From Gemmatimonadota bacterium (GTDB lineage Bacteria > Gemmatimonadota > Gemmatimonadetes > Gemmatimonadales > Gemmatimonadaceae), in assembly GCA_021324775.1 (NCBI GenBank), contig JAJPIM010000023.1:53176-117175 (forward strand): DNA of 64,000 bases. The letters run 5' to 3'. Shown one piece after another: positions 29,953-49,100 of this stretch. Each line of letters starts with the position of its first letter. Within the stretch, counting starts at the first letter, position 1. The notes below the pieces were generated by a model. The model did not search any database, was not told the origin of the DNA, and saw only the letters and a list, made by a program, of their open reading frames with translations. A program made the translations under genes and the position numbers.

Positions 29953-30131
29953 CGCGGCGTGTATCTCTGGACGGGCGAACCTCCGAATTGCCCTTCGGCG
30001 AGCCGGATGAGAGGCCCTCGCCGGGCGCCAGGACTGCCCGGGTCCCGCGACCTCTGGCACGGCCGGTCGTCTGCCCCTAGGAAACTCGTAACTGTTTGAT
30101 CCGCCTTCGCCTCCGGGGCTTCTCCTCAAGC

Positions 30132-33838: not shown

Positions 33839-33956
33839 ACGGTGGCATCATGGCCCGGGTGTGCGAGGCGAGTTGTGATCTCGAACGGTAAGGTGGCACC
33901 GCTCAGAGCAGGCCTTGCGTGGGCTTGCCGGCATTCACCGTTACCGAGGGTCTCTC

Positions 33957-34160
33957 ATGACACAGCGTCACCTCCTCGCTCGCGCCGCTCGCAAATCCAT
34001 CTTCGCCGCAACTGCCGCTGTTCTCGTCGCACTGGCTGCGGCGTGCTCGTCACCGACATCACCCACGGCGGACAACAACAGCTCCGCTGCTATTCGCAGC
34101 GGACCAACTCCCGTGGCACACAACGCCTGCGGCGTCTACGCAGGCAGTGATCAGTGCTAG
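33957..34160 (+). CDS. small putative lipoprotein (67 aa)
   Basis: In-frame ATG 33957 in track ORF 33915..34160, preceded by GAGGG. Signal plus lipobox-like ...AAVLVALAAAC. The mature part is Ser/Thr/Pro-rich and ends in C-x9-C (ACGVYAGSDQC). Confidence 0.4.
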   Translation: MTQRHLLARAARKSIFAATAAVLVALAAACSSPTSPTADNNSSAAIRSGPTPVAHNACGVYAGSDQC

Positions 34161-34226
34161 TCTGAGGGTCCAATGTTGGCTGGGGCGTGAACGATGCGTC
34201 ATCGCCCAGGCGGTGCCGTACCGCGG

Positions 34227-35840
34227 TCATCCGTGGTGCGGCGCTTCCGCCCGGCGGCGAACGCGACGCACAGCGCGCGTGATCCGTTGGACAGATCGTG
34301 ACATCGTCACAGGAGTTATCGGCGGGAACCAATCGTGTACTGCGCGCTCTGACCTGAGCGCCGCTATCGCCTCGTCGGCGCGAATGGTGACTTCGTGGAC
34401 TCGATTGAGTGCGGCCAGCTCGAGGGCCCGCTCAAAAGCCGTCGCGGCAGCGACTGGTCGTCCAAACCGGACCTCTCCGCGTCCCTCGTACAGCGCGAAC
34501 TTCGCAGCCACTTCGGCCGGGAGTACTCCGGCACGCTCCGCTTGGTGTAGCGTTCGCCGATAGGATTCAAAGAGGTCCTCTCGGTGTTCGAGCACCGCGA
34601 GTTCGAGAAGGTTCGTGGCTGCAATGAGCCGTATTTCGCGACGATGCGCACCTGTGTATAACAACAAGAGTGGATCACGTGCGGCGTCGTACAATCCCAT
34701 CTCCGCGAGGCTCTGAGCGAAGTCAGCGCACGCACGCTCCCGGCGATCTGGATCGCGATAGCCTCGCCAAGCGGCATAATAGTGCTCCGCCGCAACGTTG
34801 AAATCACCCTGGCGGCTCGCGACGACCCCTCGATCATGATGCGCAAGGGCTAGAATGTTGAGAAAGTCAGATGGGTCGCCGGAGCCAGCGTCCAGGTTAT
34901 CACCCGTATACGTCGGCCGCACACGAGGGGTGCTGTTCTTTGCGGCTCTCGCGTCCCGGATAATCGCGTCGAGCGCGGCTGCCGCAGCAGGCAGGTTTCC
35001 GAGATGCATCAGCATTTTCGTCTGGGAGATGCGCATGAGTCGCTCTGCGTGTTCATCGCCCAGCATATCGGCGGCTCTACACCCCGCGTCATAGGCCGCT
35101 CTCGCCCCGTCGAGATCACCGACCATGCGGAGCGACCGCCCAAGCCGATCATACGTGTGCGGCACAAACGCTTGAAGAACAGACACGCCGTCCGCCTGTG
35201 GGGCCGCCGCAACCCGCAGCACCGTGCGATACACGTCGGCGGCGAGCGGCCACCGCGAATCAGCGTGCAGCGCGTGGGCGTAGGCCAGTAGCCGCTCCGG
35301 CAGATTATTGGCGATGACGGCACTCGCCGACTGGACGAGCTCACGGAGCGGTCCGGCGACGGAGTCATGATCGTCCACGGCACCGGTCGCGGCGTGTGCG
35401 GCTTCGATGACCTCCGCTGGCACGTCTGCCGTGAATCCGCTCTCCGGCACCAGTTGCAGCCTATGGCGAATCCCATACTCCGCGCTGGCGATTCGCCGGT
35501 CGGCCAATCGCAGCGTCACAAGTCCCGCGATCAGCGCACGCCACTCGCTCCCGCCCTCCTGTCCTTCGAGTGCCGCGAGGGCCCGGAAGAACGGCTCGTG
35601 CAACAGCTCCGCGCGGGCCGTTTCGTGTCCCCCGGTGAGCACCGCAACCTCGGTTTCGTCGGACGCAGGCATGAGTTCCAAGGTGCTGGCGATCCCGTGG
35701 ACCCGAAAGGGTTCTGTCGCGTAGCAGCATGACGGGCGCTTGACGCGCTCGGTGAGCAGGCGTACGCTGGAGAGGACACCCTCGGTGCAGGGAAATCGTG
35801 ATGTTTCAACGGAGTACGCACCGGTGACATTGGATACCAT
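34227..35840 (-). CDS. TPR-like helical-repeat protein (start uncertain)
   Basis: Track ORF 34227..35912 overlaps the divergent gene start, so it is trimmed to MVSNVTG (35840); a later ATG at 35672 is also possible. The C-terminal two thirds show repeated TPR-like patterns (LGRSLRMVGDLDGARAAYDAG..., ALAHHDRGVVASRQGDFNVAAEHYYAA...). Confidence 0.6.
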   Translation of the reverse strand: MVSNVTGAYSVETSRFPCTEGVLSSVRLLTERVKRPSCCYATEPFRVHGIASTLELMPASDETEVAVLTGGHETARAELLHEPFFRALAALEGQEGGSEWRALIAGLVTLRLADRRIASAEYGIRHRLQLVPESGFTADVPAEVIEAAHAATGAVDDHDSVAGPLRELVQSASAVIANNLPERLLAYAHALHADSRWPLAADVYRTVLRVAAAPQADGVSVLQAFVPHTYDRLGRSLRMVGDLDGARAAYDAGCRAADMLGDEHAERLMRISQTKMLMHLGNLPAAAAALDAIIRDARAAKNSTPRVRPTYTGDNLDAGSGDPSDFLNILALAHHDRGVVASRQGDFNVAAEHYYAAWRGYRDPDRRERACADFAQSLAEMGLYDAARDPLLLLYTGAHRREIRLIAATNLLELAVLEHREDLFESYRRTLHQAERAGVLPAEVAAKFALYEGRGEVRFGRPVAAATAFERALELAALNRVHEVTIRADEAIAALRSERAVHDWFPPITPVTMSRSVQRITRAVRRVRRRAEAPHHG

Positions 35841-35896
35841 CGGCGTAACGGTGTTCCCCGGACGAAACGCGTGACGGCCCTGCCGGGCCTCCGTCC

Positions 35897-36736
35897 ATGA
35901 TCGCCGCCGCATGGGTGACGGACCCGCTCGCTCGCGAGCGACTCGCGGCCGCGATCACTGGGGAGCGCCGCCCGCGCCGGAGCAGACGTCCCGCCATTCT
36001 GTGGTGTGATTCCGGGCAAGACGTGATGGTCGCGGTCACCACCCGCGGGGCAAACGCTGTCATCATCGAACTCGCTGGCTTCGGCCCATCTGATCTCGCG
36101 TCCGCGACCGGCAGCGACATATCGCACATCGAGGAGGTGACGCGAGCGGTGCGCGGCCAGCACCCAGCCGTGCCGGTGCTCGTGTATGCGCCCCTCACCG
36201 CCGCGGCGTCGCGCGCCATTGTCACGCTGGCCCGCGCTGGCGTCGCCAACGTGATCATCGCCGGCCACGACGATCTCAATCACGCCGTCGGTCCGATCCT
36301 GGCCCGGGCGGCCTCGGCGTGTGCGGCGGAGGATGCGTACCGGATACTGTCCGCAGTCGCGTCGCCTGGAGTGGCAGCGATCCTGAACTACGGGCTGCGA
36401 TACGGAGCACGTGCCCCGACAGTCGCTGATGCGGCGGCCGCCCTGCATGTGCACCGGAAAACTCTGGCCGCGTGGTGCCACGCGGGCGGCGCGCCCTCAC
36501 CCCGTGTGCTCGTCACGTGGTGCCGTCTCATCATCGCTACGGAGCGACTCGCCGACGCACGCTGGCCCGCTGAGCGGGTCGCTCGCGTCCTCGGATTTGG
36601 GTCCGGGTCCGCGCTTGCCGGTTTGATCCGGCGCCACATAGGTCTTAGTCGCGCCGAACTCCGCGAGCGGGGCAGCAGCGTCGTCGTGGAGATGCTGGCT
36701 CGGAGGCTGGCCGATGGCCGTGAGCGGGTAACCTGA
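35897..36736 (+). CDS. pseudo-receiver + AraC-like HTH regulator (paralog B)
   Basis: Track ORF of 279 aa. N-terminal CheY-like layout lacking an obvious phospho-acceptor context. C-terminal HTH: TVADAAAALHVHRKTLAAW...ERVARVLGFGSGSALAGLIRRHIGLS. Confidence 0.7.
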   Translation: MIAAAWVTDPLARERLAAAITGERRPRRSRRPAILWCDSGQDVMVAVTTRGANAVIIELAGFGPSDLASATGSDISHIEEVTRAVRGQHPAVPVLVYAPLTAAASRAIVTLARAGVANVIIAGHDDLNHAVGPILARAASACAAEDAYRILSAVASPGVAAILNYGLRYGARAPTVADAAAALHVHRKTLAAWCHAGGAPSPRVLVTWCRLIIATERLADARWPAERVARVLGFGSGSALAGLIRRHIGLSRAELRERGSSVVVEMLARRLADGRERVT

Positions 36737-36821
36737 ACGGGCCGCTTTAGACAATCACCTCGCACTCGCAAGCCTCCGTGCCGAGCGGAGTGAGTTGTGC
36801 CGGGCCTGTTTCGCGAGGTGC

Positions 36822-37073
36822 CTATGGCCGCGGCTTGCGTCTGCGCGAAGGCCTAGGTGTGAGCAGGACACAACGCTCACGGGGCGCATCCGGCACATCG
36901 AGCGGCTGCGTGATCCACGCTCCCATGTCCGGGCGGTCATCGATCGGGGCGAACGCCGTGGTCCGCCTGACCGCGCGCGCGAGATCGGCCCAGCCCCATT
37001 CCTGTCCGGGCACCAGGACGCGCATTTCAGGATCCAGCTTCGACAGGATGTCCAGCAGGTGGCCGACAGTCAT
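36822..37073 (-). CDS. small hypothetical protein (83 aa)
   Basis: In-frame ATG 37073 in track ORF 36822..37226: MTVGHLLDILSKLDPEMRVLVPGQEWGWADL... I recognise no family. Palindromic operators lie upstream. Confidence 0.4.
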   Translation of the reverse strand: MTVGHLLDILSKLDPEMRVLVPGQEWGWADLARAVRRTTAFAPIDDRPDMGAWITQPLDVPDAPRERCVLLTPRPSRRRKPRP

Positions 37074-37164
37074 GGGGTAGGTGGGGGGCAAGAGACGACG
37101 CCGCCGCCACGCCGTTTCCCCCCGGGCTCTGCTGATTATGTCGCACGGTGGCCCATGGAGGGAG

Positions 37165-37190
37165 GCACTATAAATAGTGCTTTCGCGAAA
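37165..37190. promoter_or_regulatory. two adjacent perfect palindromes (GCACTAT-AA-ATAGTGC and TTTCGCGAAA): operator candidates
   Basis: The 37165..37180 inverted repeat is 7+2+7, and 37181..37190 is a 10-bp palindrome. Both sit in the divergent region between the small ORF (36822..37073) and the ECF sigma gene. Confidence 0.5.
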
Positions 37191-37454
37191 TTCGGCCGCG
37201 CATGCTATGCCTCCGGAGCTATCCACGGCGTGACTATCCGCACCTCACTTTTGCACCCGATCACGGATCCTCTGACGGCCCGCTGACGGCTGGCACCCAC
37301 TGTCTCACACATGCGGTTGGCCGGATAGCAGCGAGTGGGACGCTCGCGGCGTGCCCAAGCGACTGGCTCGGCGCTCTGGACGGCGCTGCCGAGTCTTGTG
37401 CTGGCGCGGGCGGCACGCGCGTGGGACGCGCTGGTGGCTGAATCGGCGCGGCGC

Positions 37455-38105
37455 GTGTCGGAGGACAAGGGAAAGCCTGCTGAGGAAGCCGACCGCACGC
37501 TGCTCAAGCGGCTTGCGGCCGGCGATGAAGAGGCGCTCGAGCGTCTCTTTCTTGCCCACGCCGGCGCACTGCACCGGGTAGCCTACCGGTACCTCCACTC
37601 ATCGTGGGCCGCGCGCGCCGTCGTGCAGGACGTGTTCACCGCCGTGTGGTGGCGGCGTACTACGCTTGCTGTGCGCGGACCGATCGGCGCGTATCTCACG
37701 GTGGCCGTCCGGAACCGTGCGCGCACCGTCCTGCGCGAAGAGTTGCGCCGCCGAGAGCGTGACGCACGGTGGGTCGAGGACAGCGGGAAGCCGGAGAGCG
37801 AGAACAGCAAGCGTGCCGCCGCGGCCGAAGAGGCGGGAGGAACCCGAGGGCGGATGGCCCCCGGCGATCTCGCGGACGCACGAGCCGCCGTGCAGGCCGC
37901 GCTCGCCGCACTCCCCGATCGCCAGCGCACCGTCTTCCGGCTGCGCGTCGAAGAACAGATGTCCAACGCCGAAGTGCGGGCCGCGATTGGTGCGGTCTCG
38001 GTCAAGGCGGTCGAACGGATATTCTCCCGCGCGGTTCGCGCCTTGCGCGCGCGGCTCCTGCCGCCGGACGGCGGCCGAAGCCAACCCAGGCGCCGCGGCC
38101 GGTAA
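37455..38105 (+). CDS. ECF (sigma-70 family) RNA polymerase sigma factor, FecI-like
   Basis: Track ORF 37335..38105. A GTG at 37455 gives a typical ECF length. Region 2: LLKRLAAGDEEALERLFLAHAGALHRVAYRYL. Region 4: LPDRQRTVFRLRVEEQMSNAEVRAAIGAVSVKAVERIFSRA. Confidence 0.8.
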   Translation: MSEDKGKPAEEADRTLLKRLAAGDEEALERLFLAHAGALHRVAYRYLHSSWAARAVVQDVFTAVWWRRTTLAVRGPIGAYLTVAVRNRARTVLREELRRRERDARWVEDSGKPESENSKRAAAAEEAGGTRGRMAPGDLADARAAVQAALAALPDRQRTVFRLRVEEQMSNAEVRAAIGAVSVKAVERIFSRAVRALRARLLPPDGGRSQPRRRGR

Positions 38106-38111
38106 GGCGCG

Positions 38112-39338
38112 ATGCCGACGCCTCCCGAGCGTGCTTCGATCCTCGCCGCGATTCGAGCGGGGGTTTTGGCCTTGCGGCGGCGTCTACATGTCGTGAGGTA
38201 CACACTCCGCCCGGCGCGCCCCTGGCGTTTTCCGGTCACCACTCGCCGTACGCAGGCAGACTCGGCCGGCGATCCGGGCGTTTTGCTGGAAGGCTATCTG
38301 GTGAGCGAGCTGGGTGCTGTGGAGCGGGAGCTGTTCGAGTCCTGGGTCGCGATGGACAGCGACCGAGGGCTGACCATCGAGGCGCTTCGCCATTCGTATG
38401 ACGAGCCGTATGACGAGCCGGATGCGGGGGAGTGGTGGGCCGAGTGCCGGAAGCGGATACGTATGCCCTGGAGCGGGCGGTTGGGTGACACGGTCGACCT
38501 CACGGTGACCGGCTCTGACCTTCGGATTGTCAGGCCGGTCATTGCGACTACCGGCCGGTGGCTGTCGCCCGGATGGTTCGGTCTCGCGGCGTCGATTCTG
38601 TGTGTTTCGCTGGGCGTTTGGGCTTTCCACTCCAGGAGAGACTCCGCGGCTAGCGCCATGCATCTCGCCGAACACTCGTACGCGACGGCCCGTGGCGAGC
38701 GTGCGGTGCTCACGCTCGGTGGCGCGACTGTGGTCCTGGGTCCGGAAAGTGTGCTTCGGATTTCGGGCAGCTACGGCGTCCGTGATCGCACGGTCTCGCT
38801 CACGGGGCACGCCTACTTCGATGTCGCTCATGATGCTGGCCATCCATTCCGGGTGTGGGCCGGTGGAGTTCTGGCTGAGGACATCGGCACACGGTTCGAT
38901 ATCCGTGCGTACGGGCGCGATTCGGTGATGCGGCTCGTGGTCGCGGACGGCGCGGTCGTGATGCACACCCGGCGTGTCCCGGCGGACGGATCGCACGACA
39001 GCGCAGTGCCGATCTCGTCGGTGGTCGTCACCCGCGGGATGATGGCGACGGCCGGTGTGGACGACGTCGTGCGGGTGCGGTCCGGGCTCGCCGCGGACCG
39101 CTATCTGTCCTGGAGTGATGGGCGGCTGGCGTTCGACGACACGCCGCTACCTGAGGTCGTGGCGGAGCTCAGCCGGTGGTACGACCTCGACATTCGGCTC
39201 GGCGATGCTCGGCTCGCATCGAGGACATTGACCGCGTCCTTCGACGACCCAGCCGCCGATGTGCTGGTGGCACTCGAAGGCGCACTCGGCATACGCGCAA
39301 CCCGTGTGGGGCGTGTCGTGACGCTGTATCCGCCCTGA
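38112..39338 (+). CDS. FecR-family anti-sigma / transmembrane sensor
   Basis: Track ORF of 408 aa. One TM segment (WFGLAASILCVSLGVWAF). FecR domain, and a C-terminal signature: LAFDDTPLPEVVAELSRWYDLDIRLGD...LTASFDD. It starts 6 nt after the sigma gene. Confidence 0.85.
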   Translation: MPTPPERASILAAIRAGVLALRRRLHVVRYTLRPARPWRFPVTTRRTQADSAGDPGVLLEGYLVSELGAVERELFESWVAMDSDRGLTIEALRHSYDEPYDEPDAGEWWAECRKRIRMPWSGRLGDTVDLTVTGSDLRIVRPVIATTGRWLSPGWFGLAASILCVSLGVWAFHSRRDSAASAMHLAEHSYATARGERAVLTLGGATVVLGPESVLRISGSYGVRDRTVSLTGHAYFDVAHDAGHPFRVWAGGVLAEDIGTRFDIRAYGRDSVMRLVVADGAVVMHTRRVPADGSHDSAVPISSVVVTRGMMATAGVDDVVRVRSGLAADRYLSWSDGRLAFDDTPLPEVVAELSRWYDLDIRLGDARLASRTLTASFDDPAADVLVALEGALGIRATRVGRVVTLYPP

Positions 39339-39429
39339 GATCCGTCCCGCGGGGATAGGCCGCGAGACCGTCTGCCCATCCGAAGTCTGTTTCTCACCGT
39401 GCAGCCATCCACGACCGTGGGGGGGAGCT

Positions 39430-42171
39430 ATGGATCGTCCTCGAGTCCGCCGAAGCACATCCGGTAACGTATGGCGAGTGCTGGTTTCGCTTGCCGCCAT
39501 GATGGTCGCCGTAAGCAGTGGTGCCGAGAATGCGGCGCCAGTGCCCGATCAAGTTCCGGCGTTCTACGCGGCGCCGGTGGATGCTGGCGGCAAGCTCCAG
39601 CGCCTCGACACGGCGCGAACCGCGATCCTCAGCCGGCGCATCACGATCGCTGTGCGTGATGCGACGATCCCGGAAGCACTGGCGGCGATCTCGGAGCAGT
39701 CGGGGCTGCGGTTTACCTACGACCATGCGGTATTGCCGGCCCGCACACGAGTGACGCTCTCCCGCCAATCAGTGACCGTCGCGGCGGCGCTGACCCACGT
39801 CCTGCGTGGCGCGAACGTGGACGTGGAGCTGACGCCAGACGGATTGGCGTCGGTTGTCGCACATCGTGCAGTTCAGGATAGCGGCGCGATCACGGGGCGC
39901 GTGACGGACAGCAAGACAGGGCAGGGGATCGCGCACGCCACGCTGCTGGTGGAGGGTATTGCGCGTGGCGCCACGACCGACGACAGCGGCGCATACCGGA
40001 TCGCGGACGTGGCACCAGGCACGTACACGCTTGGCGTGCGGTTCCTGGGGTACGTCGAGGCGCGGCGGACCGTGACGGTGGTCGCGGGCCAGTCGCTGGT
40101 GGTCAATGTGGCGCTCGTGCAATCAGTCAATCAGCTCGATCAGGTTGTCGTGGCCGGGACGGTTGTGCCGACCGAGGTCAAGGCAATTCCCACGCCGGTT
40201 TCGGTAATCACCGCGACCGACATCGATCTGCAACGGCCACAAACAGTCGCACAGCTCTTTCGGCAGGCAGTGCCGAGTGCGGTCGCATGGGATATTGCGA
40301 CGGATCCTCAGCAAACGAGCTTCGCCGTTCGCGGTGGCAGCACGCTCAATATCGGAGCTGGCTCGATGAAGGTGTACCTGGACGGCATCGAGGTCACCGA
40401 CCGTACGTTTGCTGCAGTCGACCCGGCAAGCATCGACCGGATCGAAGTAATTCGCGGCCCAGAAGCAGGGACGATCTACGGCTCCGACGCGATCTCTGGT
40501 GTCCTTCTGGTTACGACGCGACATGGCTCTCCCAACTCAACCCGTCCCGAGGTGAACCTCCAGGCAGCCGCCGGCGTGGTGCAAGGGCCGTATGCTGACC
40601 AGGGAGGAGGCAACGTGGCTCGGCAAGAGTACTCCGGGTCGGTCAATGGCGGCACACAGTCCGCCAGCTATTCTCTCGGCGGCGGCTATGCAAGCACCGG
40701 CAACTGGGTGGCCCAGGGTGCCACGTCAATCCCGAGTGGGTTCGGCAGTGTTCATATCGCGCAGGACCGTATCACGGTCGATATCACTGGCCGGGACTAC
40801 ATCCAGCAGGTGGGCGAGGCGTTTCCGCCGGACTTTGCGTCAACTGGCATTCCGACCTACACCAAGCCGACCAATCAGTTTCTGACTTCACAAGAGCAGA
40901 CGGTTGGCGCTAGCATCGGCTTCACGCCAGCCAGTTGGTGGCATCACTCGCTCACGATCGGAGTCGATCGCACTCTGAACGATCTCCGTTCGAGCGCTCC
41001 GGCTTTGACAACTCCCGCGGACACTTTTCTCACAGTCGACGAGCAGAACGAAAGCAGGCTGACCTTGGCGTACAACACGTCGGTTCTGCTACAGATCAAC
41101 AGGATGGTTTCAGCCAACGTGACGGCCGGCGTAGATCACTACGATCTCGGCAACGATTCGTATTTCACAAGCGGTGCGACCAACACCACAGGCACGATCG
41201 AGACCGATCCTGGCCAGCCGTTCACCGTCTCACGGGCACCGTTGACGAACACCGGCGTTTTTGTTCAGACGCAGGTGGGCGTGGCGGACCAATTGTTTTT
41301 CACGGCTGGAGTACGAGCGGAACAAAACTCGGCATTCGGGCAGCAGCTCGGGACACCGGTATCTCCTCGATTTGGGATTGCCTATGCCCCATCTCTTGGG
41401 TCGCTGACGCTGAAATTGAGGGCGTCGTACGGGCAAGCCATCCGGCCGCCCGATCCGGGCGAAGAGGAAGCGATCCTGACGCCGTCGACGCTCCAACTCG
41501 CCAATCCGCGGTTGAGTCCAGAGCGGCAGAGCGGTTGGGACACCGGGATAGATGCGGCGTTCGGCGGCCGCGGTTCGGTCGGGGTCACGTACTACGACCA
41601 AGTCGCCAGCGATCTGATTGATGGCGTGACAATCAACGCCGACACGAATCCTCAGGTCCAGCAATTCCAGAACCTCGGCCGGGTTCAAAACCGGGGTGTC
41701 GAGCTGGAAGGCACCGTGCGATTGGGGTTCGGCCAAATCGCCGCGCAATACGCCATCACGAGCAGCCGCGTCGAGTCGCTGGGCCCTTTGTACGGCGGCG
41801 ATCTCAAGGTGGGTGATCAACTGCTTGTCGTGCCGCAACATACTGGCGGCCTGTCGCTGGCGATGTTGCCGCTGCGCAGGACGACGGTCACGGTCGGACT
41901 ATCCTATGTGGGTACCTGGACGAACTACGACGTCCTCGCTGAACTGAGTTGCTTCGGCGGCACGGGACCCTGTGCGGCTACGTCCCGCGGATACATCCGG
42001 CCCTATCCGGGGTTTGCCAAGGCAAATCTGGCTGTTACGCAACAACTCACGTCTTTGGTCTCTGCATTCGTGACGGTAAAGAATGTCACCAACAACGACA
42101 CGTATGAATTCTTCAACGCTGAACCGATTCAGGGACGCGTAACGGTTGCGGGCGTCCGTGTCCGCTACTAA
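39430..42171 (+). CDS. TonB-dependent receptor/transducer with N-terminal STN signalling domain and CarboxypepD_reg domain
   Basis: Track ORF of 913 aa. Signal peptide. STN-like RITIAVRDATIPEALAAISEQSGLRFTYD. GRVTDSKTGQGIAHATLLVEG...GAYRIADVAPGTYTL. Plug (IDRIEVIRGPEAGTIYGSDAISGV), and a beta-barrel ending ...VRVRY. Confidence 0.85.
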   Translation: MDRPRVRRSTSGNVWRVLVSLAAMMVAVSSGAENAAPVPDQVPAFYAAPVDAGGKLQRLDTARTAILSRRITIAVRDATIPEALAAISEQSGLRFTYDHAVLPARTRVTLSRQSVTVAAALTHVLRGANVDVELTPDGLASVVAHRAVQDSGAITGRVTDSKTGQGIAHATLLVEGIARGATTDDSGAYRIADVAPGTYTLGVRFLGYVEARRTVTVVAGQSLVVNVALVQSVNQLDQVVVAGTVVPTEVKAIPTPVSVITATDIDLQRPQTVAQLFRQAVPSAVAWDIATDPQQTSFAVRGGSTLNIGAGSMKVYLDGIEVTDRTFAAVDPASIDRIEVIRGPEAGTIYGSDAISGVLLVTTRHGSPNSTRPEVNLQAAAGVVQGPYADQGGGNVARQEYSGSVNGGTQSASYSLGGGYASTGNWVAQGATSIPSGFGSVHIAQDRITVDITGRDYIQQVGEAFPPDFASTGIPTYTKPTNQFLTSQEQTVGASIGFTPASWWHHSLTIGVDRTLNDLRSSAPALTTPADTFLTVDEQNESRLTLAYNTSVLLQINRMVSANVTAGVDHYDLGNDSYFTSGATNTTGTIETDPGQPFTVSRAPLTNTGVFVQTQVGVADQLFFTAGVRAEQNSAFGQQLGTPVSPRFGIAYAPSLGSLTLKLRASYGQAIRPPDPGEEEAILTPSTLQLANPRLSPERQSGWDTGIDAAFGGRGSVGVTYYDQVASDLIDGVTINADTNPQVQQFQNLGRVQNRGVELEGTVRLGFGQIAAQYAITSSRVESLGPLYGGDLKVGDQLLVVPQHTGGLSLAMLPLRRTTVTVGLSYVGTWTNYDVLAELSCFGGTGPCAATSRGYIRPYPGFAKANLAVTQQLTSLVSAFVTVKNVTNNDTYEFFNAEPIQGRVTVAGVRVRY

Positions 42172-42186
42172 CCCCACACCGTCCAG

Positions 42187-44553
42187 ATGAACTTCACCGT
42201 GCGACCAATAGTGACATGGGGTGTCGCTGTGCTCGAGGCTCTCCTCGCCTCCAGCGGTGCACTCGCGCAGGCGTCCGATTCGTTATCCATCAGCGCCGCG
42301 CTATCTCAGCCCTTGTTCCTCGACTACATGCCAGTGTCGATGTCGCCCGACGGTCACGCGGTCGCCTATACGATCTGCTCCGTAGACCGCGTGAACAGCG
42401 ACACACTGATTGCCGGCTATACCCGAACGGGTGCTACGGGATCGGCGCGAGGCTGCGAGGTGTGGATCGCGGAGTTGAAGCGCAACGTGGCGGTTCGTCT
42501 CAATGACAGGCCAGGTGTGAACGCCTGGGCGCCTCAATGGTCGCCCGATGGAACGAGGGTCGCCTACTACTGTGATGCCAATGGTGTCGCGCGCCTGTGG
42601 ATCTGGGACGCGGCCGTCGGAACAAGTCATCCGGTTTCAGATGCGATCGTACGGCCTTACACGCCGCTCGAGGTCCCTCGGTGGACGCCGGACAGCCGCG
42701 ACGTGGTCACGCGGATCCTGCGGTATGGCACCACCCTGGATGCGACGAGAGGCAGCGAGCATCTCATCGGGATGTCCTGGGATACTGTGGGCCGAGTGCC
42801 TGGTTCGACGGTGGCCCTGTATCGAACTGACTCAACTTGGCGTACCCAGACTCGGCTCATACCCTCGACAGTAAGCCTATCCGAATCCTTCTATGCCGGT
42901 GACCTGGCGCTGATCCGCGTCGCCACGGGAAAGGTGACCGTGCTTGCGCACGGCTATAGGCCATTTGCGTACTGGGTATCGCCTGACGGCCGCTTTGTCG
43001 CATTTACTTCAATGCACGGTATAACGAATGCGACGGCCACCATCGCCGAGTACCGAGACGACTTGGTGGTGGTTCCACTCAACGACCGTGTGCCGCCTTC
43101 GCCGAGGCTGGTCGCAGACCGCGCAGTCATCTCGCCATATGGGACCGGGGTCGCCTGGTCGCCCCGGGGTAGCGCCCTCGCGTATGCGATCGCTGAGCCT
43201 GACGGAACTGAATCGTACAATATCCTTCACACAAACGACTGGAGCATCAAACACTATCTGGCGCCTGACAGCATCGGTCACAGGCTTAGAAGCCGGGACG
43301 GAGCTCAGCCGCTCCGATGGGATTCAGCCGGCCAAGTGCTGCTGATCGTATCCGACTCCACTGTGGCTCAACTCACCATTGATAGCAACTCGTTCCGCGT
43401 GGTGGCCCAGCCGCCCCGCGGGACGTCGATCGTCTCGTTCATCGGCCCGAGTACCGGCAATACGGCATGGGACGATGGCGGCAAAGGCCTTGTGGTTGTA
43501 TCTCGCAATGACTCGACCAAGCGGATGGGTTTTGCGAGGATCGACTGTCGCACCGGTGTGTGGACCCAGGTAACGGACGAGGAACAGTACATCGGGTCGA
43601 GACAATTCACCGCAAGCGACGTATCGGCCGATGGGCGGAGTCTCGTGTACGCATCAGAGGGAGCGGCGAGCCCCCGAGATCTATGGATTGCAGACACAAG
43701 CCTCGTCCACTCCAGGCGGCTGACCAATGTTGCTCCGTCGCTCGTCGGCAAATCTTTTGGCAAAACGCGGCTGGTCCATTGGAAAGCGGTCACCGGCGAG
43801 CCGGTCAGCGGTGCGCTGTTGTTGCCGTCCGATTATGTGCCCGGGCATCGGTATCCTTTGATCGTCTATCCATACCCGCGGGAGCACCGCTCCAACAATG
43901 TCTTCCGCTTCGGGCTTCAAGGGGAAGGCACTGAGAACATGCAACTGTTGGCGACGCGTGGGTTTGCGGTGCTGGCTCCTGACGCGCCAATCCGATTGAG
44001 CGATCAGATGCGGAGCTTGGCGGACGCTATCATGCCGGGTGTTGACCAGGTCATTGCCATGGGGATCGCTGACTCCGCACGCATTGGTCTGATCGGCCAT
44101 AGCTGGGGCGGTTACACGGTGTTGGCGCTGCTGGTACAAACTCACCGGTTCAGGGCCGCGATCATGAGGGGTGGATACGGCGATCTCTTTGCCGACTATG
44201 GCGAAATGCAAGGTACTGGCGCGACGTTCGGCCAGTTACGCCTCGAGTCGTGGCTGGGTACCACTCCGTGGAAGGACCTGGCGCGATACATCGACAACTC
44301 ACCCGTGTTCTTTCTCGACCGGGTGGATACGCCGCTACTGATCATCGAGGGTGGAGCGGAGACCACGGTTCCTCCGCACGAGGCGGCAGAGGTGTTCGTC
44401 GATCTGCGGCGGCTTGGGAAGGAGGTCGAGTACGCTCTCTACGGGGGCGAGAATCACGGAGAGATCGGATGGCGGTACGCGAATCAACAGGACTACCTGG
44501 CGCGGACGATTCAATGGTTCCAGAGATTTCTCGGAGACGCCGGGTCGAACTAG
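42187..44553 (+). CDS. secreted S9 (prolyl oligopeptidase family) serine peptidase; candidate lasso-peptide isopeptidase
   Basis: Track ORF of 788 aa. Signal peptide ...SSGALAQA. N-terminal beta-propeller-like repeats (WSPDG x several). C-terminal alpha/beta hydrolase with GHSWGGY. Sits 15 nt after the TonB receptor gene and is convergent with the lasso operon. Confidence 0.75.
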   Translation: MNFTVRPIVTWGVAVLEALLASSGALAQASDSLSISAALSQPLFLDYMPVSMSPDGHAVAYTICSVDRVNSDTLIAGYTRTGATGSARGCEVWIAELKRNVAVRLNDRPGVNAWAPQWSPDGTRVAYYCDANGVARLWIWDAAVGTSHPVSDAIVRPYTPLEVPRWTPDSRDVVTRILRYGTTLDATRGSEHLIGMSWDTVGRVPGSTVALYRTDSTWRTQTRLIPSTVSLSESFYAGDLALIRVATGKVTVLAHGYRPFAYWVSPDGRFVAFTSMHGITNATATIAEYRDDLVVVPLNDRVPPSPRLVADRAVISPYGTGVAWSPRGSALAYAIAEPDGTESYNILHTNDWSIKHYLAPDSIGHRLRSRDGAQPLRWDSAGQVLLIVSDSTVAQLTIDSNSFRVVAQPPRGTSIVSFIGPSTGNTAWDDGGKGLVVVSRNDSTKRMGFARIDCRTGVWTQVTDEEQYIGSRQFTASDVSADGRSLVYASEGAASPRDLWIADTSLVHSRRLTNVAPSLVGKSFGKTRLVHWKAVTGEPVSGALLLPSDYVPGHRYPLIVYPYPREHRSNNVFRFGLQGEGTENMQLLATRGFAVLAPDAPIRLSDQMRSLADAIMPGVDQVIAMGIADSARIGLIGHSWGGYTVLALLVQTHRFRAAIMRGGYGDLFADYGEMQGTGATFGQLRLESWLGTTPWKDLARYIDNSPVFFLDRVDTPLLIIEGGAETTVPPHEAAEVFVDLRRLGKEVEYALYGGENHGEIGWRYANQQDYLARTIQWFQRFLGDAGSN

Positions 44554-44626
44554 CCGATCAAGAACGCCGAGCCGACAGAGCCGGCGGAAGTCAAGAGCCA
44601 GTGGGGACTGAGGCCGCTCACGTCGG

Positions 44627-44770
44627 CTAGAGTTGGAACCCTACGCTGCCAGGTGCCATCCCCAAAAGGTGAATCCGGTCCACGGGATCTTTGGTGCCAG
44701 CAACAAACTGCTTCGTGGTCTCGACGAGACGGCCCGCGTTGGTGAGCTGCGGTGTGGTATAGCTCTTCAT
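44627..44770 (-). CDS. lasso peptide precursor (47 aa), not in the ORF track
   Basis: Own translation: MKSYTTPQLTNAGRLVETTKQFVAGTKDPVDRIHLLGMAPGSVGFQL*. AGGAGA/GGAGAT lies 4 nt upstream of the ATG, which is 26 nt downstream of the cyclase stop. The leader fits YxxPxLxxxGxxxxxTx. Confidence 0.8.
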   Translation of the reverse strand: MKSYTTPQLTNAGRLVETTKQFVAGTKDPVDRIHLLGMAPGSVGFQL

Positions 44771-44796
44771 TGTTATCTCCTGGACTGTGTGTCCGG

Positions 44797-46713
44797 TCAG
44801 GCGTGTTTGGAATGCAACTTCTGAGTCCTGCTAACGTTGTACTGATCTCTAGCAACTCGTGCGACCTCCGGTCCCCACCGGCCCGAGCGTACCTGCAACC
44901 ACAACTCGACATCGACAACCGACTCCACCATCCCACTCACGACTTCCGCATCCTCCGTATCCCGTCTATTTGCGTCTAGTTCGGCCTTTAGGCGCTCAGG
45001 GTCGATGACGCCCAGCGCACCCAGCATCGATTCGTTCAAAAGCGCGCGAATGAACCTGCTCTCCTTCAGTAGGGAGTGTACCGTCAGGCCTCCCGCGTTT
45101 CCTTTTCCTACTCGGGTGCGCACAACCTCCGGCACAATGCCGCGCATCGATTCGCGCAGCACCCATTTCCGCGCGTGAGGTCGAACACACATGGCCGCTG
45201 GCAGATGCAACGCGAATTCGACCAGCGGCCGGTGTAGGTATGGATGGCGGATGTCGAGCGCGTCTCGGTCTACACCGCTGCCGAGAATGGAGGGAATGGC
45301 GCCGACTGCCGATGCCAGCGCGAATTCGTATTTGGAGCCCGCGGGTCCCGAATACAGGAGACCCGAGCCGACTCGCTGGTTGAGGCGGTACTGTCGCACA
45401 AGACCAGCACTCACCCACGGCGGTACAGACGATTCCAGCCCGCGCACCACTAGTTGGCGGAGGCGACTCGGTATCAATGGCAATACGACGTTCTGATAGG
45501 CCAGATCCCAGAACGAGACGCGACCGATCGCTGCCCGGTGTACCATCTCCCGAAGTGCGTCCCTGACTCGTCCGCGGGCGACCCAATCTGCAAAGAAGAA
45601 CATCGTCCCGAGGAAGAGATTGTCGCCGCCGCTGCCCGTCAGCAGAGTTGAGCCGCCCGCAGCTGTCACCGCATCGACGACACCCCCGTCGCGGGCCGCA
45701 ACCGTGTAAGAGCAAACACAGGGCTGATCGAACCGGGGCAGATCATCGAGGATCGCCCACCGGTCCAGTTGATGCGGAATTAGCACATTTCGAATGCCGT
45801 AGTGCGCCACGACCGCATCGGAATACCAGCGTTCATCTGCGGCCGTGCCGATCGGATCCACGAATGAGACCGTGCCCCCAACACCGTCCGGGAGAGCGCC
45901 TTTCGATGCCATCCATTGGGCCGTGCTGACAACTGATGACGAGTCGAGCCCGCCCGACAGATGCGCCCACGTGCGCGGTCCGTCTGTAACACAATTCCTG
46001 ACTGCGTCAGTAAGGAGCTGGCGTACAGCATCGACTTGGTCCGTCTCAGACCGCAGATCGACGCCTTGGGCTTGCGCGTCGCTCACGTTCCAGTAACTCG
46101 CCACCCGCGGCAGCCCGTGCTCGAACCGCAGCACGCTCGCCGCCGGCAATGCCGACACACGCGGATACACGGTGCTCGCGGGATCAGGGGCGCAGTACGA
46201 CACCCACGCCGCCAGATATTCGATGTTGTAGTCGTCCCCTTGTGCCAGCAATTCCGCCCGGGAGGAGAACGTCACTACTCCAGGGCTGGGTGTCGCGTAA
46301 TACAACTGCTTTACCCCGAACGTGTCGCGCGCCGCAATCAGGGTCCGCGTATCCGCCTCCCACACGACAAAGGCGAAATCGCCCAGGAGACGCGCCACTC
46401 CCGCCGTCCCGCGCCGGAGCGCCACCTCGCCGGCAAGCCCGAGATCGCCAATCCCCGGATCGGCATCGCCCAGCAGCTCGAGCATCTCCGCCCGGTTATC
46501 GATGCGGGCCACGCCCACCACCGTCACTGGCCCCGATCGCACGATCGCCGGCGGACACGCACCGTGTTCCGGCCCCACGACCGCGATGAGTCCGTCCGCG
46601 GTCACCCAGTGGAGTGGATGATCCCGGCAGTACGGCGCTCCACGTATTACCGTGCGAAACGACAACGGTGGCGGGCCGCCATCGAGGCGCACCGCTCCCG
46701 CAAACATTCTCAC
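44797..46713 (-). CDS. lasso peptide cyclase (asparagine synthetase B homolog, McjC-like)
   Basis: Track ORF of 638 aa. The N-terminus MRMFAGAV lacks the Cys-2 glutaminase nucleophile. The ATP-pyrophosphatase motif HLSGGLDSS is present. 4-nt overlap with the B2 gene. Confidence 0.85.
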   Translation of the reverse strand: MRMFAGAVRLDGGPPPLSFRTVIRGAPYCRDHPLHWVTADGLIAVVGPEHGACPPAIVRSGPVTVVGVARIDNRAEMLELLGDADPGIGDLGLAGEVALRRGTAGVARLLGDFAFVVWEADTRTLIAARDTFGVKQLYYATPSPGVVTFSSRAELLAQGDDYNIEYLAAWVSYCAPDPASTVYPRVSALPAASVLRFEHGLPRVASYWNVSDAQAQGVDLRSETDQVDAVRQLLTDAVRNCVTDGPRTWAHLSGGLDSSSVVSTAQWMASKGALPDGVGGTVSFVDPIGTAADERWYSDAVVAHYGIRNVLIPHQLDRWAILDDLPRFDQPCVCSYTVAARDGGVVDAVTAAGGSTLLTGSGGDNLFLGTMFFFADWVARGRVRDALREMVHRAAIGRVSFWDLAYQNVVLPLIPSRLRQLVVRGLESSVPPWVSAGLVRQYRLNQRVGSGLLYSGPAGSKYEFALASAVGAIPSILGSGVDRDALDIRHPYLHRPLVEFALHLPAAMCVRPHARKWVLRESMRGIVPEVVRTRVGKGNAGGLTVHSLLKESRFIRALLNESMLGALGVIDPERLKAELDANRRDTEDAEVVSGMVESVVDVELWLQVRSGRWGPEVARVARDQYNVSRTQKLHSKHA

Positions 46714-47141
46714 GGCGCCATCCCCGCCCGACGCACCGCCGCGTCGAACGCCGTGAAGATCCGCACGTGCTCCGGGACGTCGTTGATCGGCTCACCGCGA
46801 TACTCGACCCACGCGTGTGCCATGAACGGGTACCGCTGGATCCCGAGCCGCATCTGCGCGGCGATGCCGCGGCACCGGAGATAGTCATACAACACCAGCG
46901 ACCGCTCGAGGCACTGCGCCCGGCCCGGGAAGAGCGCCGCTCCCATCGCCACCGCATACTCGATCGCGGCCACCACCCGCGGGTCGCCATCACCAACGAC
47001 CTCCACCCGAGCGATCCGGCGCTCGATCCGCTGCCGGGTCCGATCGTAGCCCGCGAGCTTGAGCGCCCAGCGCACGATCGTCACCCGCGCCAGACACTCC
47101 GCGGCGGACGGGACACGCAAGGCGCGGCGGTCAGCTCTCAT
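46710..47141 (-). CDS. lasso peptide biosynthesis B2 protein (transglutaminase-like leader peptidase)
   Basis: Track ORF of 143 aa: ...FPGRAQCLERSLVLYDYLRCRGIAAQMRLGI...FMAHAWVEYRGEPIND, the Cys/His/Asp arrangement of McjB-type proteases. Confidence 0.85.
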   Translation of the reverse strand: MRADRRALRVPSAAECLARVTIVRWALKLAGYDRTRQRIERRIARVEVVGDGDPRVVAAIEYAVAMGAALFPGRAQCLERSLVLYDYLRCRGIAAQMRLGIQRYPFMAHAWVEYRGEPINDVPEHVRIFTAFDAAVRRAGMAP

Positions 47142-47493
47142 GAGCGGCGCCCGATGTCTCCTGGATCAGTAAACCCGCCGCCCGCAGATGCCGAAGCAGA
47201 GTCGTGACGTCCTGCTCGACGGGATCCACGTCACCCACCAGTGGGACGTCGTACTCCGCCCGGATGGTCCCGACGATGGCCTCGAGCGTCGTCCCGTCCG
47301 CGAGCAGCTCCCACACCCGCGCTCCGACGTCATTCAGCGTGTGGTACCGGCCGCGAACTGGATCAAGCAGCACCGTCTCACCGGCGCGCGTGGCCGACAT
47401 CACGTGCAGCGGACGCACCAGCCGGCCACGAAACTCCGCGTCTCGTGCAGCACCAGGCGCGGCCCGGCGGATGAAACGCTCCACAAACCGCAT
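47131..47493 (-). CDS. lasso peptide biosynthesis B1 protein (PqqD-like RiPP recognition element)
   Basis: Track ORF of 120 aa: ...GETVLLDPVRGRYHTLNDVGARVWELLADGTTLEAIVGTIRAEYDV...DVTTLLRHLRAAGLL. GAGAGGA lies 7 nt upstream of the ATG. 11-nt overlap with the B2 gene. Confidence 0.85.
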   Translation of the reverse strand: MRFVERFIRRAAPGAARDAEFRGRLVRPLHVMSATRAGETVLLDPVRGRYHTLNDVGARVWELLADGTTLEAIVGTIRAEYDVPLVGDVDPVEQDVTTLLRHLRAAGLLIQETSGAAHES

Positions 47494-47663
47494 GACGCCA
47501 TCCTCTCGAAGAGTCGCCAGCCGGCAGGCACGCGTTCTGGCTCGCCGATCGGTGCTCGCGAGAGTTAGGGTCTAGATGCGGGCTCGCCTATCGCCGCAGC
47601 ACGCCAGAGTTGCGGCCGCGCGACGATCTTGCTCCGGCGCGACAGCCGCGCTCAACTCGACGC

Positions 47664-48575
47664 TCACTCCAGTGCTGTCATCGGTCGCGATCGGGGCCGC
47701 GCGACCTGGCCGGCGCGTGTTTCCAGCACCGGGTGAACGAGTGCGTTGCACGCGTACTCGAGCGCGGTCTCGAACTCCGCGCCCTCCCGCACGCGCGCCG
47801 GGGTCAGGCCGCCCAGATATTGCTGCATGAGACGGGTGATGGAGCTCGCGTGCGCGAAATGCCGGAGCCGCTGGATCCGCCGGGCCGGCCACCCATGCTC
47901 CGACATCAGCCACACGGCGTCCAGCGCCCGCACGGTCTGCAACACCACCCGCGCCGTCGCCCACCCCGATCGCACGAGCCGCCGCTCCACTGTCCTCGGC
48001 GACACCCGGCTCCATCGCGCGAGTTGATCCACTCCACGCCCACTCGTCGCCTTGAGCACCGCGATCGCGAGGAAAACCCGGAGCGGCGATGGCGCCAGCG
48101 GCAGTAGCCGCCGCAGAATCACCGGCACCGCACTCGATGGCTGCCCGCCCGTCATCACTCGGCGCAGCGCCGGCGGCAGCGGCTCCGCGGGCCGTACCAC
48201 GAACTCGATCCGTAACCCCGGGACCATCAACGCGGGCAACGCGTCGATCGTCAACCGGTCGGCGCGATCGTACACCACGATCGGCACTCTGCCCAAACCG
48301 CTCCCCGCTGCTCTCTGCCGCCATCCCACAATTCCGGCACGCAGGGCGTCGGCATCGGCCACCACGACGTCGATTGGCCCGCCCGCCATCGCTTCACCAA
48401 CCGCGTCCATCGAATCGAGGTATCGCAACACCGTCGCGTGCGCGAGCTGCTCGCCGATCATGCTCCGGTCGCCACCCCCGCGCAGCACCACACCGACTAC
48501 CGGTTTCGGCGGCCGGTCCAACACACTTGGCTCCGTACTCCTCACGGCATTCCCCTCGTCCTGCGATATTGGCAT
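47664..48575 (-). CDS. pseudo-receiver + AraC-like HTH regulator (paralog C), immediately upstream of the lasso operon
   Basis: Track ORF 47664..48593; the first ATG is at 48575. It has the same two-domain layout as 35897..36736. HTH: GVDQLARWSRVSPRTVERRL...RIQRLRHFAHASSITRLMQQYLGGLTP. Confidence 0.7.
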   Translation of the reverse strand: MPISQDEGNAVRSTEPSVLDRPPKPVVGVVLRGGGDRSMIGEQLAHATVLRYLDSMDAVGEAMAGGPIDVVVADADALRAGIVGWRQRAAGSGLGRVPIVVYDRADRLTIDALPALMVPGLRIEFVVRPAEPLPPALRRVMTGGQPSSAVPVILRRLLPLAPSPLRVFLAIAVLKATSGRGVDQLARWSRVSPRTVERRLVRSGWATARVVLQTVRALDAVWLMSEHGWPARRIQRLRHFAHASSITRLMQQYLGGLTPARVREGAEFETALEYACNALVHPVLETRAGQVARPRSRPMTALE

Positions 48576-49100
48576 GACGCGACCTCGGTCCACACGAGCC
48601 GGCTACGGCTTGCTCCGTATTGAATGCATGGACAAGCTCCACCGCGCTGACAAGAGGCGCACGCGTCCGCACTTGCAATTATTTCGTCGCACCGGCGTGT
48701 GTCTGCCAAAAACCGTTTACCGCGTTACGCGAACAGTTGGTGTGTCACCCGCCGGCGATATGTTCTCGCTCCGTCTTTACCGAGATCACACACGCGTCGG
48801 GGAACGCGACATCACGCGGGCTCGGGATGACGGCCGGATGACACCGCCACCAATGGGAATGGCAGCAGATATTGTGGCCGCATGACGCAGGCATGACGGT
48901 GGAACGACGACCGCTTGACGCTGCTGCGCCACGCACGGCCGGTATGATCGGATGCAACAATCCGCCACCTTCCGATGCTGCTGTGCCGTTTTGGCGCGCG
49001 GCTCGTACGCGGACCCCTTTCCCCGGGCGGTGCCTCCGGCTCCCGAATCCTGCCTCTTCTATAGTGGTGACCCCCGTCGCCGCGGATTCGTCCACCTTCC

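Follow-up and report, generated by a model that had tools for sequence, protein, structure and literature searches.

A split-B lasso-peptide cluster convergent with a sigma factor/FecR/TonB receptor/S9 peptidase operon in a soil Gemmatimonadales bacterium

We analysed a 64-kb stretch of DNA (the window) from a soil Gemmatimonadales bacterium with a G+C content of 60–70%. It contains a complete split-B lasso-peptide cluster that is convergent with an operon for a sigma factor, a FecR protein, a TonB receptor with a probable STN domain and an S9 peptidase. The nearest relatives of the window are uncultured Gemmatimonadales genomes, and the same contig is present in the metagenome assembly ENA ERZ27279683 (run SRR5579863). 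Genes were assigned from open reading frames together with Pfam and NCBIfam profile scans, and the two operons comprise the following eight:

37335..38105, plus strand: extracytoplasmic function (ECF) sigma factor (Sigma70_r2 and r4_2)
38112..39338, plus strand: FecR-type anti-sigma factor/sensor (FecR, E = 9e-11; FecR_C, E = 9e-11)
39430..42171, plus strand: TonB-dependent receptor/transducer (signal peptide, weak STN, CarboxypepD_reg (NTE), Plug, 22-strand-type barrel)
42187..44553, plus strand: secreted S9 serine peptidase (Peptidase_S9, E = 3.8e-23)
44627..44770, minus strand: lasso precursor of 47 amino acids, last gene of the lasso operon (leader motif)
44797..46713, minus strand: lasso cyclase C, asparagine-synthetase-like (Asn_synthase, GATase_7; best NCBIfam match NF033535, 176.9 bits)
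46710..47141, minus strand: B2 leader peptidase, a transglutaminase-like Cys protease (NF033537, 75.4 bits with a cut-off of 33; Transglut_core3)
47131..47493, minus strand: B1, a PqqD-like leader-recognition element (PqqD, E = 4e-20; NF033530, 58.8 bits)

The plus-strand genes are separated by 6 nt (sigma–FecR), 91 nt (FecR–receptor) and 15 nt (receptor–S9), and 73 nt lie between the stop codons of the S9 and precursor genes, where the two operons converge. These coordinates agree with the initial annotation, which had described four tightly spaced plus-strand genes, the S9 gene 15 nt behind the receptor gene and an operon end 73 nt from the precursor gene. On the minus strand, the order in the direction of transcription is AraC, B1, B2, C and precursor, with overlaps of 11 nt between B1 and B2 and of 4 nt between B2 and C. 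The division of B into two genes, made in the same annotation, is confirmed by the PqqD and NF033537 matches. With the features of its precursor, a PqqD-like B1, a transglutaminase-like B2 and an asparagine-synthetase-like C, the operon has the components that define a split-B lasso cluster.

The precursor gene is preceded by an AGGAGA ribosome-binding site and encodes the leader MKSYTTPQLTNAGRLVETTK and the predicted core QFVAGTKDPVDRIHLLGMAPGSVGFQL. The leader matches YxxPxLxxxGxxxxxTx, the motif of RRE-dependent lasso leaders. None of the NCBIfam precursor families matched the precursor, and its family was defined as the window together with homologues in L001–L006, L054, L055, L065 and L083–L086 (L numbers denote loci in other genomes). 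The approximately 20 homologous precursors have Thr at −2, an acidic residue at core position 8 (7 in L055) and, usually, Pro directly after the ring Asp8. They end in G-[ST]-[VLI]-G-F-x-L (GSVGFxL in the type found in the window), and ring and loop are variable. The ring of the window core is predicted to close between Gln1 and Asp8. Among the homologues, position 1 is predicted to be Gln (three loci), Met (two) or His (one); the remaining loci have Ala, Ser, Gly or Thr. Before a 2025 report of Asn, experiments had shown only Gly, Cys, Ser and Ala at this position (PMC12670498), and Gln, Met and His therefore represent predictions of an uncharacterised kind. Genomes L001 and L002 carry three precursor genes each. 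The conserved C-terminus also places a Phe two residues from the end, which by our own reading resembles the plug arrangement of MccJ25.

The sigma factor has its best NCBIfam match in TIGR02985 (Bacteroidetes-type ECF; 85 bits, under the cut-off) and carries an N-terminal extension of ~60 amino acids that is conserved in L001, L003 and L063. Together with the FecR domains of the anti-sigma factor, it forms the pair that characterizes FecIRA-type systems. The STN domain that the initial annotation had assigned to the receptor is missed at the Pfam threshold (a partial match of 26.2 bits, below the cut-off of 28.4) and is supported by three other lines. A profile of receptor residues ~58–150 searched against the PDB finds the STN/N0 domain of PilQ (E = 3.4e-4) and, weakly, the signalling domains of FpvA, HasR and FecA (E ~1). 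The AlphaFold2 (AF2) model of the receptor N-terminus has a beta-alpha-beta/beta-alpha-beta-beta unit followed by a transthyretin-like NTE domain, and the region agrees with the STN motif by eye. The Foldseek search with this model is dominated by the transthyretin-like NTE domain and is no test of the STN fold, and the sequence profile was used instead. These data are compatible with a putative, divergent STN domain. In an alignment with L001, L002, L003 and L063, the receptor start codon (ATG at 39430) is conserved along with the ribosome-binding site in front of it. The barrel part of the receptor differs between strains.

The peptidase is a protein of ~790 amino acids whose signal-like N-terminal sequence ends in ALA-QA and whose serine motif, GHSWGGY, spans residues 637–643; both features had been pointed out before and are present. 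Its AF2 model (predicted local distance difference test score 85.9) shows the two-domain S9 fold of a propeller and an alpha/beta hydrolase domain. Residues Ser639, Glu725 and His757 align with Ser527, Glu610 and His638 of the lasso isopeptidase AtxE2. All three catalytic positions (Ser, Asp/Glu, His) are retained across 120 aligned members of the family, save for a few gaps in the alignment, and Asp is commoner than Glu at the acid position. The comparison with AtxE2 proposed in the initial annotation thus comes out positive for the propeller and the triad, with Glu725 as the acid, and negative for family score and Foldseek rank.

Against NF033523, the profile of the AtxE2 family, the peptidase scores 161.7 bits and does not reach the equivalog cut-off of 400. 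Nine other members of its S9 family, lasso-linked or not, score 103–159 bits, and PGAP labels the alpha-proteobacterial proteins of L081 and L082 as NF033523 members. A single-sequence search of the PDB places AtxE2 first, narrowly (71 bits versus 64 for 8wt1). With the family profile, the Geobacillus S9 carboxypeptidase 8wt1 (192.5 bits) stands above AtxE2 (107.6 bits), and Foldseek is led by 8wt1, a Deinococcus S9 peptidase and DPP-IV, with SpI-IsoP in 19th place and AtxE2 outside the top 50. BLASTP identity to true AtxE2-family proteins is 23–28%. A bootstrapped neighbour-joining tree built on the catalytic domain recovers a monophyletic AtxE2 group in all 100 replicates and unites the S9 family with AtxE2 in 0 of 100, with mean distances from the S9 family of 2.12 to AtxE2 and 1.79 to generic S9 enzymes. 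By profile score, family profile, Foldseek and tree, the peptidase is therefore not a member of the AtxE2 family. As the neighbour-joining tree is crude, the two may still share a very deep common origin, for which positive evidence is nil.

To follow the layout across genomes, we fetched 78 loci from species-representative genomes with the peptidase-family profile alone and annotated them with iterated hidden Markov models built from the window proteins. Adjacency was scored in the 67 loci whose downstream sequence extends for 3 kb or more, and required a lasso cyclase encoded on the other strand no more than 5 kb away. A convergent cyclase adjoins the peptidase homologue in 24 of the 67 loci, namely in 8 of 14 from Gemmatimonadota, 14 of 35 from Acidobacteriota, 2 of 5 from Pseudomonadota and 0 of 13 from other phyla. 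The receptor gene lies directly upstream of the peptidase gene in 10 of 18 lasso-linked loci versus 2 of 31 others. The four closest metagenomic relatives of the peptidase (62–82% identical) all have the identical eight-gene layout. The adjacency of peptidase and lasso genes is far beyond chance.

A survey of gene neighbourhoods had been suggested in the initial annotation, and these counts (24/67 loci; 4/4 closest metagenomic relatives) establish that the two operons co-occur in related genomes. The combination with split B genes, which the same annotation had taken to be special to the window, recurs in Gemmatimonadota and Acidobacteriota, and split-B soil clusters with prolyl-oligopeptidase genes have been mentioned in passing (PMC12670498).

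In Acidobacteriota, loci L028 and L013 have the same S9 family and a TonB receptor facing split-B lasso clusters. In Steroidobacteraceae (L059, L060), the S9 family of the window stands next to fused-B clusters of the metanodin kind. What stays constant in the association is thus the receptor, the S9 peptidase and the lasso cluster, and the FecR/STN layer is lineage-specific. Both acidobacterial clusters (L028 4484..20732, L013 3330..18680) also contain a classical S9A prolyl oligopeptidase between C and B2. L028 further encodes an APH-like kinase, an ATP-binding cassette (ABC) exporter, a zf-HC2/RskA anti-sigma factor and a receptor without STN, and its precursor, MEYNKPEILAVADALESIQSSKKPTPARADSNSKETATAYEADE, is unrelated to the Gemmatimonadales precursor family. 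Tandem arrays of three to seven S9 paralogues occur in L008, L010, L011, L015, L016, L020, L040, L046 and L051 (all Acidobacteriota), where lasso genes are absent within 10 kb. In L015, L020 and L046, the S9 array comes after an ECF sigma factor and a TonB receptor. These acidobacterial arrays may be peptide-utilisation loci.

The window is syntenic over ~21 kb with the nanopore-derived Gemmatimonadales genomes L001 and L002, and the identity of its proteins to those of L001 differs strongly along the locus. It is 90% for the sigma factor, 90% for B2, 86% for B1, 85–89% for the AraC regulators and 88% for a flanking hybrid kinase. FecR (73%) and the receptor (72%) are lower, and cyclase C (69%), the S9 peptidase (58%) and the precursor (45%) lower again. 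At the DNA level (300-nt windows), a background of 80–92% identity to L001 and L002 is interrupted by a valley of 50–72%, which extends from the first peptidase codons through the precursor gene and the C-terminal two-thirds of the cyclase gene. Against L002, its left edge lies at ~42180 in the receptor–peptidase spacer and its right edge at ~46120 inside C, after which identity is 88–93%. The N-terminal ~200 amino acids of the cyclase are conserved, and the remainder falls within the valley.

Synonymous divergence is 0.3–0.5 in the flanking genes, 1.0–1.4 in C and saturated in the peptidase gene. The ratio of non-synonymous to synonymous divergence (dN/dS) in the valley is ~0.12–0.17; the values for the TPR and receptor genes were left out, as frameshifts in the nanopore-derived L001 and L002 distort them. 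Raised synonymous divergence combined with this low dN/dS marks the block as an older allele under purifying selection that was either swapped by recombination or maintained. Positive selection was rejected as the cause of the valley, since synonymous divergence is raised as much as non-synonymous divergence at this dN/dS, and relaxed drift was rejected because the same ratio indicates purifying selection.

In a second comparison, between L001 and L002 (background 90–99%), the valley takes in the receptor barrel and the peptidase and, of the three precursors, just the adjacent one; the other two are 94–95% identical. A matched contrast comes from L083 and L001, which are equally distant from the window in the sigma factor (90/90%), B2 (90/90%), B1 and AraC. 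L083 is nonetheless much closer than L001 in the S9 peptidase (80 versus 58%), the receptor (86 versus 72%) and core residues 1–20 (60 versus 30%). The peptidases of L083 and L084 share 80–82% identity with that of the window. A rank correlation of core-peptide similarity with per-gene identity covers seven loci, too few for significance, and we therefore rely on the L083/L001 contrast and the identity profiles. These comparisons show that peptidase, precursor and the C-terminal portion of the cyclase make up one co-inherited, strain-variable cassette in an otherwise conserved locus, to which the receptor barrel belongs in some genome pairs. Co-inheritance with the peptide core argues that the peptidase, and in part the receptor barrel, handle their own peptide specifically.

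The syntenic locus of L063, a Gemmatimonadales metagenome-assembled genome (9900..14900), looks different. There the genes for peptidase (34% identity), precursor and cyclase (in pieces) are fragmented or barely recognisable, with regulators at 65–83%; this reflects either decay of the cassette or frameshift errors of long reads.

Isopeptidase-type lasso clusters have a near-constant architecture with a GntR regulator, a TonB-dependent transporter and a sigma/anti-sigma pair (PMC9266682), and a 2026 perspective places lasso isopeptidases mainly in alpha-proteobacteria. As references for the AtxE2 family we used the plasmid-borne clusters of Asticcacaulis sp. DW145 (L081) and Novosphingobium sp. 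PP1Y (L082). Both have the order sigma > FecR > TonB receptor (STN 41–42 bits) > isopeptidase, convergent with C < B < A. The likeness to astexin/AtxE clusters that the initial annotation had drawn is therefore correct in order and convergence, and so is its statement that proteobacterial AtxE clusters often carry TonB transporter and FecI/FecR-like genes (L081, L082; PMC9266682). In the Asticcacaulis cluster, the receptor–isopeptidase spacer is 16 nt, a GntR gene lies directly upstream of A, and the AtxE2 homologue has a signal-like N-terminus, in keeping with a periplasmic AtxE2. Since the peptidase is already co-operonic with the receptor in AtxE2-family clusters, where this is the norm, a co-operonic peptidase is not the novelty it had been taken for.

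The window shares gene order, convergence and the absence of an ABC exporter with the alpha-proteobacterial isopeptidase clusters (astexin/AtxE2, sphingopyxin/SpI-IsoP, benenodin/BenE). In common with AtxE2-type clusters, it has a receptor–peptidase spacer of ~15–16 nt (window and Asticcacaulis), a signal-like peptidase N-terminus and a Ser-His-Glu/Asp triad. It thus presents the published isopeptidase-type architecture of peptidase, TonB receptor and sigma/anti-sigma pair beside lasso genes lacking an ABC exporter (PMC9266682), and lacks a GntR gene before the precursor, a fused B and a precursor in first position. AtxE2-type clusters have a fused B and run GntR-A-B-C, whereas the window has split B1/B2 and runs AraC-B1-B2-C-A. 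The window receptor differs by an extra CarboxypepD_reg/NTE domain and a sub-threshold STN, the proteins are 23–33% identical, the phylum is Gemmatimonadota, and the ~790-residue peptidase belongs to another S9 lineage. Judged by its genes, the window cluster is a deeply diverged counterpart of the alpha-proteobacterial isopeptidase-type clusters.

Three further systems resemble parts of the locus. The metanodin cluster (biosynthetic gene cluster BGC 89, Steroidobacterales; PMC12670498) has an inversely oriented peptidase gene, no ABC exporter and an unusual residue (Asn) at position 1. It differs in being of the fused-B proteobacterial type; its peptidase was called an isopeptidase by inference, the peptidase genes were omitted from the expression constructs, and the receptor/sigma module and co-variation of peptidase and peptide are not discussed (PMC12670498). 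Like FecIRA and the Bacteroidetes ECF-SusC-like transducers, the window pairs an ECF sigma factor with a FecR-domain anti-sigma factor, and its receptor probably begins with an STN domain; the NTE (CarboxypepD_reg) domain lies ahead of the plug, which is also the order in SusC-like transducers. Unlike in those systems, the presumed ligand is a lasso peptide rather than ferric citrate or a glycan, a peptidase gene has joined the operon and the putative STN is divergent. The rubrinodin-type cluster combines an isopeptidase, an ABC transporter, a TonB receptor and FecI/FecR (PMC9266682), comparable to the ABC exporter, receptor and S9 peptidase of L028. The window differs from it in having no ABC exporter, and the acidobacterial versions in adding an S9A prolyl oligopeptidase, a kinase and a non-FecR anti-sigma factor.

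A cycle of import, signalling and linearisation is a standing hypothesis for isopeptidase-type clusters, for which a siderophore-like or concentration-control role has been proposed and whose exact function is called unknown (PMC9266682). Proven isopeptidases cleave only their cognate peptides, and their lasso peptides are mostly without antimicrobial activity (PMC9266682). For the window, co-inheritance and analogy to these systems make it somewhat probable that the peptidase acts on its cognate peptide after receptor-mediated uptake. With less confidence, and by analogy, opening of the isopeptide bond would be the most likely chemistry. In such a pathway, B1 would bind the leader through the YxxPxL...G.....Tx motif, B2 would cut the precursor after Lys20 and C would join the Gln1 amine to the Asp8 side chain to give a 27-residue lasso. 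The lasso peptide would leave the cell without an ABC exporter encoded in the window, as in the alpha-proteobacterial type. Binding of the peptide to the receptor would let the STN domain signal to FecR, with release of the sigma factor and induction of the receptor–peptidase operon. Once imported into the periplasm, the peptide would be hydrolysed by the S9 peptidase (Ser639, Glu725, His757), most likely at the isopeptide bond, which would end the signal, release cargo or recycle the peptide.

Several observations weigh against this pathway. The NF033523 cut-off is not reached, and AtxE2 is not a nearer relative of the peptidase than generic S9 enzymes are. The S9 family also has many members in loci that lack lasso genes, among them the tandem arrays in Acidobacteriota. 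A search with an acidobacterial lasso ABC protein as query found no homologue anywhere in the 64-kb window, and the analysis turned up no export route. The Pfam score of the STN domain is sub-threshold, and the zf-HC2/RskA anti-sigma factor and STN-less receptor of Acidobacteriota imply that surface signalling is not universal in the association. Scans of 36600..48800 for sigma-70 consensus promoters and terminators did not exceed what shuffled sequence gives and were uninformative for the key spacers. Finally, the closest solved relatives of the peptidase are S9 carboxypeptidases, so that a bond other than the isopeptide could be the target.

The last point leads to an alternative in which the S9 enzyme trims or cuts the lasso tail or loop, for example as a carboxypeptidase at the conserved C-terminus, in periplasmic maturation or in inactivation. 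The higher score of the family profile for 8wt1 than for AtxE2 (192.5 versus 107.6 bits), the Foldseek lead of 8wt1 and the Deinococcus enzyme, and the invariant C-terminal motif of the precursors all fit this alternative, and the co-variation within the cassette suits any peptide-specific hydrolase equally well. However, a conserved tail needs no fast-changing enzyme, and ring and loop are the parts that co-vary. Furthermore, acidobacterial precursors linked to the same S9 family do not have the GSVGFxL tail, and the architecture equals that of proven isopeptidase clusters gene for gene. We regard tail or loop cleavage as rather unlikely.

The locus might also serve immunity or competition, the cell taking up and detoxifying its own or its neighbours' lasso peptides rather than sensing a signal or unloading cargo. 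The window has neither an ABC exporter nor an immunity gene, receptor, peptidase and peptide show the allelic diversity that typifies antagonistic systems, and control of lasso concentration is among the roles offered for isopeptidases (PMC9266682). Nevertheless, it would be costly to take up a toxin in order to destroy it, lasso peptides of the isopeptidase type are mostly not antimicrobial (PMC9266682), and some acidobacterial clusters have an ABC exporter and an S9 peptidase together. Import for destruction thus seems an improbable main function. That the sigma/FecR/receptor/S9 genes form a general peptide- or nutrient-uptake locus of the Bacteroidetes type under ECF control, with the lasso cluster as a mere neighbour, is highly improbable, because convergent adjacency recurs in 24 of 67 loci from three phyla and the valley breakpoints enclose peptidase and precursor, the left one inside the 15-nt spacer, and because the layout is identical in proven alpha-proteobacterial systems, even though the same S9 family follows sigma factor and TonB receptor in lasso-free tandem arrays (L015, L020, L046), the receptor has a SusC-like NTE domain and the best sigma match is a Bacteroidetes-type ECF factor.

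Hydrolysis of the imported cognate peptide, which we prefer over these alternatives, can be extended to a more speculative proposal. The lasso clusters of soil Gemmatimonadota and Acidobacteriota could have independently acquired an S9 lineage unrelated to AtxE2, giving an exchangeable lock-and-key cassette of receptor barrel, peptidase, precursor and the substrate-binding part of the cyclase that is kept as old divergent alleles in near-identical loci. We put this forward tentatively, as a possibility that is more doubtful than cleavage of the cognate peptide itself. Such a strain-variable cassette recalls the pyoverdine/FpvA receptor types of Pseudomonas. If the proposal is true, the uptake-and-linearise cycle has evolved at least twice, and the lasso peptides are strain-private, receptor-specific shuttles or signals and not antibiotics.

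What is new at the locus, in comparison with the systems above, is the phylum Gemmatimonadota, with related layouts in Acidobacteriota, and the combination of split B, the order B1-B2-C-A with the precursor last, and regulators of the AraC rather than the GntR type. The use of a separate S9 lineage for the peptidase and the cassette-like co-inheritance of peptidase and peptide are likewise new, as are precursors that combine a conserved GSVGFxL tail with a predicted Gln, Met or His as first ring residue. That an equivalent set of eight genes has been assembled from very distant genes in other phyla provides independent comparative evidence that peptide, receptor, sensor and peptidase form one unit. 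Further comparative evidence for this unit is that the peptide core is inherited in one block with the peptidase and, in some cases, with the receptor barrel. Specificity swaps could draw on naturally occurring alleles of peptide and peptidase that share a genetic background. A lasso family whose first residue is predicted to be Gln, Met or His is not yet characterised, and the family of ~790-residue proteins that annotation pipelines call just "S9 peptidase" marks lasso clusters in Acidobacteriota and Gemmatimonadota.

Around and between the two operons lie candidate regulatory regions and additional conserved genes:

39339..39429, plus strand: FecR–receptor spacer, conserved in an alignment of the window, L001, L002, L003 and L063
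47494..47663, minus strand: non-coding region of 170 nt upstream of B1, with long invariant stretches in the window, L001, L002, L003 and L063
35897..36736, plus strand: AraC-type regulator upstream of the sigma operon (HTH_18, E = 1.4e-9)
47664..48593, minus strand: second AraC-like regulator, immediately preceding B1 in the same orientation (HTH_18 weak, 22 bits)
36822..37073, minus strand: conserved 83-residue protein between the AraC and sigma genes, divergent from the sigma gene (gene call in the source contig; no Pfam family)

The FecR–receptor spacer contains a CCGCGG-N7-CCGCGG hairpin or palindrome directly after the FecR stop codon (39345..39365), a conserved stretch and a G-rich ribosome-binding site; the stem is kept and the loop varies in L001–L003 and L063. 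This spacer is a candidate sigma-dependent promoter or operator, and the region upstream of B1 is a candidate promoter or operator of the lasso operon. The upstream regions of receptor and B1 have a weak GCGG..GATAGG element in common, found in the window, L001 and L002 and not clearly in L003, which could be a shared operator or RNA element and is no more than a lead. Upstream of B1, a GCGG..GATAGG..CCGC element at 47560..47600 (minus strand) resembles the FecR–receptor hairpin. An Rfam scan of the whole window returned zero matches.

The first AraC regulator is 83–87% identical at the protein level in L001 and L002 and is present in L003, L063, L083 and L086. The second is 88–89% identical in L001 and L002 and syntenic in L003, L063 and L083–L086. 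Hybrid histidine kinase/response regulator genes on both sides (30096..32495, plus strand; 49101..51500, plus strand) and a third AraC-type regulator (32534..33838, minus strand) flank the system. These flanking kinase and regulator genes are syntenic and 84–88% identical in L001 and L002 and, with the two internal AraC genes, make up an unusually dense regulatory neighbourhood. A TPR-like protein (34227..35912, minus strand) is syntenic in all close relatives. Its C-terminal half (~33850..35000) forms a second valley against L001 and L002, with 55–72% identity versus a background of 80–92%, and it may be another strain-variable part of the system.

Three more large open reading frames of ~955 residues each (3566..6439, plus strand; 6453..9314, plus strand; 54078..56951, minus strand) are not linked to the lasso genes, and the last of them, with tandem CarboxypepD_reg and Plug domains, is a weak homologue of the receptor. 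The 83-residue protein has 68–86% amino acid identity in L001–L003 and L063, and a clearly conserved copy stands at the same position in L083 and L086. In L003 it is 82% identical, where the neighbouring genes reach only 57–80%.

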